From: Arenicellales bacterium
Lineage (GTDB): Bacteria > Pseudomonadota > Gammaproteobacteria > Arenicellales > Poriferihabitantaceae
Direction: 5' to 3'
Assembly: GCA_963422685.1 (NCBI GenBank)
Contig: OY730442.1
Span: 2,317,839 to 2,381,838, forward strand
Length of the DNA: 64,000 bases
Shown piece after piece: positions 58,501 through 61,500 of the stretch; the stretch's first letter is position 1; each line of letters begins with the position of its first letter. The notes under the pieces were generated by a model, which searched no databases, was not told the origin of the DNA, and worked only from the letters and a program-made list of their open reading frames with translations. The translations under genes and the position numbers were made by a program.

Positions 58501-61500
58501 TAGCAGCGACGATCGCTGTTTCAATCCACGCGCCCCTGAAGGGCGCGACCGCGTCTGATTGACGCGCAGGCTGAACGCGACCTTGTTTCAATCCACGCGC
58601 CCCTGAAGGGCGCGACGCGCAGCATCTCTCCGCCGTACGCGTGCGCAAGATGTTTCAATCCACGCGCCCCTGAAGGGCGCGACGTTAGTTATGCGTCGTC
58701 GACATGACGACGCGCCGCGTTTCAATCCACGCGCCCCTGAAGGGCGCGACCTATTAAGGGCCTATTCGAAAACGGCGCAACTGTAGTTTCAATCCACGCG
58801 CCCCTGAAGGGCGCGACTTAGTTATGCGTCGTCATGTCGACGACGCGCTGCGTTTCAATCCACGCGCCCCTGAAGGGCGCGACACAAAGTTCGGGAGCCG
58901 CTAACATACTGGTTTTGGTTTCAATCCACGCGCCCCTGAAGGGCGCGACGCCTCGCGCGGCTTAAGTGGGGTGCGAGAATCGATGTTTCAATCCACGCGC
59001 CCCTGAAGGGCGCGACAACATGGACTATGCAGCTATCATTCAGTCAGGACTGGTTTCAATCCACGCGCCCCTGAAGGGCGCGACTGTCAGTACAGCTCGC
59101 GAGCGGGTACTCGCGAGCGTTTCAATCCACGCGCCCCTGAAGGGCGCGACGTAGATGTCAGTGAGCTTATCATCGATAGCGTCAGTTTCAATCCACGCGC
59201 CCCTGAAGGGCGCGACGTCCGGTGAGGGTGAGGTGAGGGAAGCCGTCACAGGTTTCAATCCACGCGCCCCTGAAGGGCGCGACGTAGATGTCAGTGAGCT
59301 TATCATCGATAGCGTCAGTTTCAATCCACGCGCCCCTGAAGGGCGCGACGGAAACTCAATAAAATGTGATGATGCACGACGTCTGTTTCAATCCACGCGC
59401 CCCTGAAGGGCGCGACCCCCTTCTTTCGTCGTTGAGATTGAGTATTCGGTGTTTCAATCCACGCGCCCCTGAAGGGCGCGACTCTCCGGGAAATCCAGCA
59501 CTGCCGCGGCTTTCAATGTTTCAATCCACGCGCCCCTGAAGGGCGCGACGCCGGGCCGCGGTGCGCTCGCGGTTGCGTGGATTGTTTCAATCCACGCGCC
59601 CCTGAAGGGCGCGACCACCAACGATCAACGGCATCTCCTTTCTGGCCACCGTTTCAATCCACGCGCCCCTGAAGGGCGCGACATTTGTTTTGCAAGCACA
59701 ATTTTGGCCGCAGATTGTTTCAATCCACGCGCCCCTGAAGGGCGCGACGCCCAGTTCGGAGATTTAGTCCGAGCCGGAAAATTCGTTTCAATCCACGCGC
59801 CCCTGAAGGGCGCGACATTGTGCCAACGACAACGATAACCAGACTCTACGGGTTTCAATCCACGCGCCCCTGAAGGGCGCGACCGTCAGAGGAACTATCG
59901 GGATCGTTGGCAGAAAGGGTTTCAATCCACGCGCCCCTGAAGGGCGCGACGAATTGCCAGAAAATATACGCGGCATCTTCGAAGCCGTTTCAATCCACGC
60001 GCCCCTGAAGGGCGCGACGGCCTATGGCTGGGTACAGTCATTATCCACGGACCGGGTTTCAATCCACGCGCCCCTGAAGGGCGCGACCGCTGAATGCAAA
60101 AGCCGCAGAACTCGCGGAGCTTGTTTCAATCCACGCGCCCCTGAAGGGCGCGACTTCGTTGATTTTTCCGGCAGCGTAGCGGCTGCCGGTTTCAATCCAC
60201 GCGCCCCTGAAGGGCGCGACACAAAGCGTTGCATTTGATGATAAATATGTCATAGTTTCAATCCACGCGCCCCTGAAGGGCGCGACGGTAAGTCAGCGCG
60301 AGATTGAGGCCGACTTGCTCCGAGTTTCAATCCACGCGCCCCTGAAGGGCGCGACCTCGCCCCCGAGCCGCCAAGCGGCCGGAATATCGGGTTTCAATCC
60401 ACGCGCCCCTGAAGGGCGCGACATGAAACAAGCAATTGAAAGATACTGCAATGAGAGTTTCAATCCACGCGCCCCTGAAGGGCGCGACCAGAAAAAACAA
60501 ATGGCGCTGAGCGAGTCTTAATAGTTTCAATCCACGCGCCCCTGAAGGGCGCGACGCTCGCCGAGCGCATCGATCACCATCGATGCACCCGTTTCAATCC
60601 ACGCGCCCCTGAAGGGCGCGACACAGAGCCACGACCATAAATATTAGCAACAGTAGGTTTCAATCCACGCGCCCCTGAAGGGCGCGACGCCAAACTGCTT
60701 ATCATTCCCGGAAGAAGTAAGAGTTTCAATCCACGCGCCCCTGAAGGGCGCGACCCATAAAAATGTTTCAATCCACGCGCCGGAGCGCGTTTCAATCCAC
60801 GCGCCCCTGAAGGGCGCGACGGGCCCTGGCCCGGTGCCGCGCAGGCCGCGCAGAAGTTTCAATCCACGCGCCCCTGAAGGGCGCGACAACAATAGAGGCA
60901 GATTAATGGATTCGAAACTTGGTTTCAATCCACGCGCCCCTGAAGGGCGCGACGGCGGTGAAGGGATTGCGAGCAGTCACGCTGGCCGAGTTTCAATCCA
61001 CGCGCCCCTGAAGGGCGCGACCTGCATAAGTGGAATACGTAGGTTGAGACTCCTTATGTTTCAATCCACGCGCCCCTGAAGGGCGCGACCTGCTTGGTAC
61101 TAAGATGCAGGTTCAAGGTCAACAGTTTCAATCCACGCGCCCCTGAAGGGCGCGACAATGTACAAAACCAATTATGTGGACAACGCACACGTTTCAATCC
61201 ACGCGCCCCTGAAGGGCGCGACACCGTGAAAAAAGGCGATATTGAAGCTTTCAGCGGTTTCAATCCACGCGCCCCTGAAGGGCGCGACGAAAGTACTTCG
61301 AAGATACCTGAGAGAGCCGGGTGTTTCAATCCACGCGCCCCTGAAGGGCGCGACTTAGGCATTTGCCGATGCCACCAATAGTCAGGCTGTTTCAATCCAC
61401 GCGCCCCTGAAGGGCGCGACCGGTTATCTACATGAACATGACGATTATATATGCGTTTCAATCCACGCGCCCCTGAAGGGCGCGACTTAGAGCGCCTATC

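Follow-up and report, generated by a model that had tools for sequence, protein, structure and literature searches.

A spacer of a long type I-C CRISPR array that probably derives from a degenerate foreign repeat

Mimics of type I-C CRISPR repeats are known experimentally from phages, both as RacrIC1 (PMC10651486) and as I-C Cracr arrays (10.1101/2024.10.29.618823). The CreR/CreA regulators and the viral Cracr copies consist of a degenerate repeat, a pseudo-spacer, and a terminator, in most cases next to cas genes, and such regulators, which resemble CRISPR RNA (crRNA), act through matches of 10-11 nucleotides (nt) next to a protospacer adjacent motif (PAM), giving binding without cleavage (10.1101/2023.03.10.532045; 10.1101/2024.10.29.618823). 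Here we consider the spacer at positions 59550-59583 of a 64,000-nt stretch of an Arenicellales bacterium genome (assembly GCA_963422685.1, contig OY730442.1, positions 2,317,839 to 2,381,838; hereafter the window), which lies within a type I-C array and begins as the opposite strand of the array's own repeat. Its sequence suggests that it was probably captured from the opposite strand of a degenerate foreign type I-C repeat, by way of the TTC that such a repeat contains.

The putative source resembles the solitary repeat units (SRU) and RNA anti-CRISPRs (Racr) described by Camara-Wilpert et al. 2023 (PMC10651486) in that it would be a lone I-C repeat-like unit, degenerate and located in foreign DNA, with its handle-coding 3' part kept. 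Unlike them, it is represented here by a host spacer copied from the unit, without a known phage or plasmid context, and the canonical hairpin beside the handle is not preserved in the available 34 nt. The likeness to CreA/CreR and Cracr is of another kind, since the host has such a unit upstream of a second cas module and three spacers of the array have sampled a foreign homologue of it; however, spacer 59550-59583 itself stands in mid-array between perfect rather than degenerate repeats, and its 9-nt match hits repeats, not a promoter, and is shorter than the known regulatory matches. With the self-targeting and off-target seed matches of type I crRNAs it has in common a correct PAM and a seed match in the host chromosome, but here the sites all lie in the array, none pairs past 9 contiguous nt, and there is no visible signature of autoimmunity. 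The spacer is a further example within known kinds, and its value lies mainly in the presence of four apparently repeat-mimic-derived spacers in one array.

The junction and the foreign repeat family

In crRNA sense the spacer starts with AATCCACGC, 9 nt that are identical to repeat positions 6-14 and that in the repeat follow GT-TTC on the opposite strand, as a previous reading made from the sequence only had noted. The plus strand across the junction (59575-59597) is a perfect 9+5+9 palindrome, GCGTGGATT-GTTTC-AATCCACGC. By its flanks (two intact repeats, with the I-C cas operon adjacent) and its modal length, this is a canonical I-C spacer. The modal length of 34 nt means that it was measured as one prespacer, and for a type I-C spacer it is unremarkable and of the right size. 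It has a G+C content of 76% (genome, 52%) and 9-mers in common with unrelated spacers, and no other spacer of the I-C array or of the host's type I-F array overlaps its protospacer.

A 9-mer match taken alone is weak evidence. When the chance rate was estimated from shuffled spacers, a check that the sequence-only reading had proposed, a repeat match of at least 9 nt anywhere on either strand was found in 0.80 spacers per array, with a probability of 0.56 for at least one. The strict case, in which 9 nt match from spacer position 1 and lie after the repeat's TTC, occurred in 0.0016 of shuffled arrays, under a definition that was set after the case had been seen. A second spacer, 55951-55984, had been offered as a weaker instance; it does hold a 10-nt piece of the repeat, but at chance level.

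Insight into the origin of the spacer comes from the bases that follow. A 21-mer composed of GTTTC and the first 16 nt of the spacer has four matches in the databases, two of which are single variant repeats in I-C arrays that otherwise carry GTTTCAATCCACGCACCCGCGAGGGGTGCGAC or a closely related repeat. Spacer nt 1-18 match the I-C family GTTTC-AATCCACGCACCCGCGAG (GTCGCACCCCTCGCGGGTGCGTGGATTGAAAC) at 17/18 positions, and the match begins precisely behind the TTC of that repeat. Once the 9-nt start is granted, the probability that the next nine bases agree at 8/9 or better with one of 35 I-C continuations is 0.012 when real GC-rich spacers are used and 0.029 when shuffles are used. In an unanchored test, each spacer was compared with 41 I-C repeats on both strands and at all offsets, and was scored by its longest stretch of agreement containing no more than one mismatch. 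No score was above 15 nt for the 1,797 spacers taken from 40 other I-C arrays or above 12 nt for the 197 other spacers of the host array; in all, 0 of these 1,994 control spacers exceeded 15 nt. By the same measure spacer 59550-59583 scores 18, the spacers at 60755 and 63417 score 19, and 14 of 40,000 composition-matched shuffles of spacer 59550-59583 reach 18 (P=3.5e-4, unanchored). What is observed directly is the likeness in sequence, where it is placed, how rare it is among the controls, and the existence of sister cases. The sequence-only reading had proposed acquisition from a second degenerate repeat, read on its opposite strand, and the 17/18 match, from exactly after the TTC of another I-C family, gives this statistical support.

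The sister cases are three spacers that derive from a foreign crRNA-like locus: those at 60755 and 63417, and a third just past the window (host genome C1:2383325-2383360) that overlaps the site of these two on the opposite strand. Together they reconstruct a foreign site, GCGCTCCGGCGCG-TGGATTGAAAC-ATTTT(T/A)ATGGATATGTACCCGCTTCAAAC, that comprises a short hairpin, an 11-nt handle, and a spacer-like tail. None of the 40 other I-C arrays has a spacer that matches its own repeat over at least 12 nt. Since three spacers come from a foreign hairpin-and-handle unit, crRNA-like loci belonged to the invader pool of this host.

Origin of the spacer

The source would be a degenerate I-C repeat of a non-host family, carried in foreign DNA, in which the loop, the 3' arm, and the ...GCGTGGATTGAAAC handle were kept and the 5' arm was lost; in the mimic sense it reads ...CCGCGGTGCG-CTCGCGGTTGCG-TGGATTGAAAC. 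Its opposite strand would read GTTTC-AATCCACGC..., and thus the unit would bring its own TTC. TTC is the type I-C PAM, and it is also found upstream of another I-C protospacer, which survives as a spacer of the type I-F array in this host. The cut made in the prespacer by Cas1-Cas2-Cas4 would fall immediately behind this built-in TTC and give the spacer the start that it has. The 9-nt identity to the host repeat would then reflect the shared ancestry of a handle region that is conserved among I-C repeats, not function, and the seed sites in the host array, together with a predicted hairpin between handle and seed in the pre-crRNA, would be by-products that both appear to be tolerated. Candidate sources are a decayed repeat from some foreign array or a crRNA-like gene, whether of the Racr/SRU, CreR/CreA, or viral Cracr type; the use of the PAM, the foreign origin, and the kind of element are what we infer from the observations above.

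Several observations weigh against an origin from a foreign repeat. The likeness to the foreign family ends at spacer nt 18. The presumed source lacks a canonical 5' arm, its 3' arm GGTTGC has no complement within the 34 nt, and its only hairpin, CCGCG-N7-CGCGG, is 5 nt away from the handle, so that the stem-loop directly 5' of the 11-nt handle is not kept. The protospacer was not found in the host's own genome, in GTDB genomes, IMG/VR, INPHARED phages, PLSDB plasmids, or JGI metagenomes, nor, at a tolerance of up to 3 mismatches, in 69 of the family's genomes; this search, which the sequence-only reading had suggested, located the source of the spacer in none of the collections. The other two matches of the 21-mer lie outside any array, at L133 in an NmrA-like gene and at L130 in a stretch that has no annotation and is flanked by ordinary genes, and therefore at least some such strings arise by chance in ordinary DNA. 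Moreover, when one genome per species was scanned for TGGATTGAAAC followed by AATCCA, the palindrome arms in the 40 cases found within I-C arrays measured 6 nt in 33, 7 nt in 5, 8 nt in 1, and 9 nt in 1. This decay is geometric, with no excess over chance, and a general mechanism that generates junction palindromes is therefore ruled out; a 9-nt arm sometimes arises by chance. Finally, some discount is due because three extension tests were tried. A loose resemblance of the remainder of the spacer to the host repeat, as described by the earlier reading, is not borne out (P=0.71), a gapped likeness to the foreign locus behind spacers 60755 and 63417 is marginal (P=0.056), and the third test was the comparison with the I-C families. 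Even after this discount the repeat likeness, judged by sequence statistics, remains beyond chance and well past the controls.

The most serious alternative is that an ordinary GC-rich protospacer (for example, coding DNA that specifies ...RLRGL(K) on the other strand) happened to start with AATCCACGCAACCGCGAG after a TTC. The arm lengths just described, with their other 9-nt case, are what this would predict, as is the expectation of about 0.8 matches of at least 9 nt somewhere in each array; by a rough, uncomputed estimate, about one PAM-anchored 9-mer would arise by chance over many thousands of arrays. The high G+C content of the spacer eases matches to GC-rich repeats, the 21-mer GTTTCAATCCACGCAACCGCG is present in the NmrA-like gene, which belongs to an Anaerolineales metagenome-assembled genome (MAG), and similar strings occur in GC-rich metagenome genes. 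On the other hand, chance would have to place the start of the likeness exactly at spacer position 1 and right behind the repeat's TTC, to extend it to a 17/18 prefix that lies outside all controls, and to do so in the only one of 41 arrays where other repeat-derived spacers occur. We regard such a coincidence as unlikely, although it would be no great surprise. Far less credible, and hardly to be entertained, is an artefact within the array, whereby the invader did not supply the 9 nt, which instead arose at integration or replication as a copy of the adjacent repeat, through a small inversion, template switching, or fold-back synthesis. The perfect palindrome at the junction is what such an event could leave, but both neighbouring repeats are intact, nine extra bases would have given a spacer of 43 nt or would imply a prespacer of 25 nt, and copying of the host repeat cannot explain why 9 further nt resemble a repeat family that is absent from the host.

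It is also conceivable, though very improbable, that the likeness is functional, with the crRNA leading Cascade to its own repeats for control of array transcription, for priming, or as a decoy sink, in the manner of a CreR analogue embedded in the array. The sequence-only reading had stated that this guide has a PAM plus a 9-nt seed match at the host's own repeats, and this is correct: in the 2.9-Mb genome the combination (TTCAATCCACGC) occurs at 202 sites, all in the array, which comprise 200 repeats and the spacers at 60755 and 63417, against an expectation of 0.35 sites for a random guide. Known crRNA-like regulators do act through short matches, with ten consecutive nt reported for a Cas12a Cracr (10.1101/2024.10.29.618823). 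In this host, about 30 nt upstream of the host's own CreR-like unit, TTC-ATTTAATAAGTaTGT presents a PAM and 11 nt that pair with the tail of that unit, followed by one mismatch and 3 further paired nt. The guide of spacer 59550-59583, however, pairs with the repeats only at positions 1-9, with mismatches at 10 and 11 and 16/27 overall. Its sites are not promoters, no promoter region elsewhere in the genome contains one, and the spacer is one of 200 guides and stands between perfect repeats. Neither the array nor its flanks gave rise to any spacer, and the own-genome matches of the I-C spacers are only to I-F spacers and a dispersed repeat; therefore, there is no trace of self-priming. The suggestion that the match might suffice for transient Cascade binding or priming found no support, given that pairing ends at 9 nt, that self-priming has left no trace, and that the spacer was retained while 95 newer spacers were added. 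The best match in the host's own genome outside the array is 14 nt, and the spacer is not self-targeting by a full or near-full protospacer.

Folding of the pre-crRNA was done with one repeat, because with two the repeats pair with each other and the result is uninformative. The predicted hairpin between handle and seed has 10 bp and -14.5 kcal/mol, compared with -15.1 kcal/mol for the canonical repeat hairpin, and the predicted probability of the canonical stem falls to 0.64 (median, 0.94); this spacer ranks 12th lowest of 200 and is not unique. Such a structure would, if anything, be expected to reduce maturation, which also argues against a function in self-recognition.

If, as we favour, the spacer was taken from a foreign repeat, a further possibility is that the host has been immunised repeatedly against invader crRNA mimics of the Racr/Cracr type, with spacer 59550-59583 and the three sister spacers all coming from such loci. 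We put this forward tentatively, as something that may well prove otherwise. As part of it, the opposite strand of every I-C mimic would present GTTTC-AATCCACGC, that is, a built-in PAM and a conserved seed, and the guide might probe any mimic that enters, a proposal we hold with the same reserve. Should the source truly be a repeat mimic, the contents of spacers could reveal viral crRNA-like regulators or RNA anti-CRISPRs that uncultured invaders carry, and hosts would acquire immunity to those very genes, i.e., CRISPR immunity against RNA anti-CRISPR genes. In addition, a guide that meets a correct PAM and matches 9 nt of seed at about 200 sites of the chromosome has been carried for long without visible cost, which offers a natural lower bound for harmful I-C self-recognition. 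The practical weight of this single spacer is modest, because its protospacer was not found in the collections searched.

The array and its surroundings

The plus-strand repeat, GTTTCAATCCACGCGCCCCTGAAGGGCGCGAC, is 32 nt long and has 201 copies in the genome, which span window positions 52526..65891 and so extend past the window end; 172 of the 201 lie inside the window. The sole variant repeat is close to the left end, at 52724. The genes cas2, cas1, cas4, cas7, cas8c, cas5, and cas3 (operon cas3-cas5-cas8c-cas7-cas4-cas1-cas2) follow on the right-hand side of the array, each of them encoded on the minus strand. The presence of Cas8c and of a complete minus-strand operon adjoining the array identifies the system as type I-C and therefore sets the crRNA sense to the minus strand (GTCGCGCCCTTCAGGGGCGCGTGGATTGAAAC), with the leader on the right and the oldest spacers on the left. 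The modal spacer length is 34 nt (86/171 spacers in the window), and the ruler of the system is 34-35 nt. Coordinates are collected in Table 1.

Table 1. Features of the array and of related units (window positions unless prefixed C1, which denotes host-genome coordinates)
Feature	Position	Strand	Remarks
Spacer under study	59550..59583	-	34 nt; plus strand GCCGGGCCGCGGTGCGCTCGCGGTTGCGTGGATT; crRNA sense AATCCACGCAACCGCGAGCGCACCGCGGCCCGGC; 106th from trailer, 95th from leader
Downstream repeat in crRNA sense	59518..59549	-	intact
Repeat giving the 5' handle of the crRNA (UGGAUUGAAAC)	59584..59615	-	GCGTGGATTG end can pair with first spacer nt
PAM-proximal 18 nt of spacer	59566..59583	-	17/18 match to opposite strand of I-C family GTTTC-AATCCACGCACCCGCGAGGGGTGCGAC; first 9 nt also equal host repeat
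Spacer with 10-nt repeat match (TTTCAATCCA)	55951..55984	-	chance level; with no more than 1 mismatch, no segment is longer than 12 nt
Spacer with 17 nt of repeat (GTTTCAATCCACGCGCC)	60755..60788	-	from foreign crRNA-like locus: short hairpin, handle, then ATTTTTATGG...
Second variant of foreign crRNA-like locus, acquired independently, with GTTTCAATCCACGCGCC	63417..63451	-	17 nt of repeat
Type I-C CRISPR array	52526..64000 (in-window part)	-	leader and cas genes past right end; repeats bear TTC+AATCCACGC on plus strand
Host CreR/crRNA-like unit	C1:2398127-2398239 (L127 14528-14640; about 16 kb right of window end)		homologous to foreign locus of three spacers

The host CreR-like unit sits in an intergenic region ahead of a second, divergent cas5-cas8-cas7-cas3-like module. 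It consists, in order, of the hairpin CGCATTTT-TTT-AAAATGCG, then CGGATTGAAAC, a pseudo-spacer ATTTAATAAGTTTGTAC..., and a terminator. The second effector module (C1:2391896-2397972; L127 8297-14373, minus strand) encodes cas5, a weakly Csd1-like large subunit, cas7, and a Cas3-like helicase without an HD-domain match; it adjoins the canonical I-C operon and has neither adaptation genes nor an array of its own.

Searches with other parts of the array bear on the invaders that it records. The 100 newest spacers gave 0 matches to PLSDB, and in INPHARED window positions 56100-64000 were matched only through the repeats, by arrays that three contigs of uncultured phages contain; these two collections do not represent the organism's pool of invaders. 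The metagenome matches to spacer 59550-59583, and some of the genome matches, are chance strings in GC-rich genes (L004, L006, L007, L133). Several spacers of the array occur in two or three copies that are identical or offset by 1-2 nt (62286, 63022, and, beyond the window, 65088; also 54954/55020, 59151/59284, 63751/63952, 60489/62352, and 62752/65624), which indicates repeated acquisition from the same sites. The type I-F array of the host (C1:2553622-2566196) has 210 repeats (GTTCACTGCCGCACAGGCAGCTTAGAAA), and 19-30 nt are common to sixteen I-C spacers and 17 I-F spacers; to judge by these overlaps, the two systems have drawn on the same sites of invaders at slightly offset positions. Outside the I-F array, at C1:2150245-2150272 and C1:2526010-2526037, lie two solitary type I-F repeats, one perfect and one near-perfect. 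The spacer at 56083-56121 is unusually long (39 nt), and 34/35 nt of it are shared with a sequence present in at least five genome copies; its four PAM-proximal bases mismatch these copies, and no TTC lies ahead of them.

Other repeat-like units were seen outside arrays. In the host itself, a solitary I-C repeat-like unit, GTCGCGCCCTTCACAGGCGCATGAGCTGAAAC (C1:440055-440086), is 26/32 identical to the repeat, a likeness that greatly exceeds chance (for the whole genome, about 2e-4); it is located at the 3' end of a 173-amino-acid open reading frame without Pfam matches, among housekeeping genes. A solitary, shortened I-C repeat-like unit with a short stem and a full handle, GTTTCAATCCACGCTCCGTGAGCGCGAC, is found on an Isosphaeraceae MAG contig (JBMFUH010001101.1; L005 392-414). 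A dispersed palindromic element, ...GATCACGATGATTTTGGATTGAAACAATCCAAAATCATAAACGTGATC..., which shares TGGATTGAAAC with the I-C handle, occurs at L008, L009, L037, L054, L077, and about 20 other loci in Caulobacteraceae and other Alphaproteobacteria, and it resembles a miniature inverted-repeat transposable element (MITE) or a repeat of the repetitive extragenic palindromic (REP) type.

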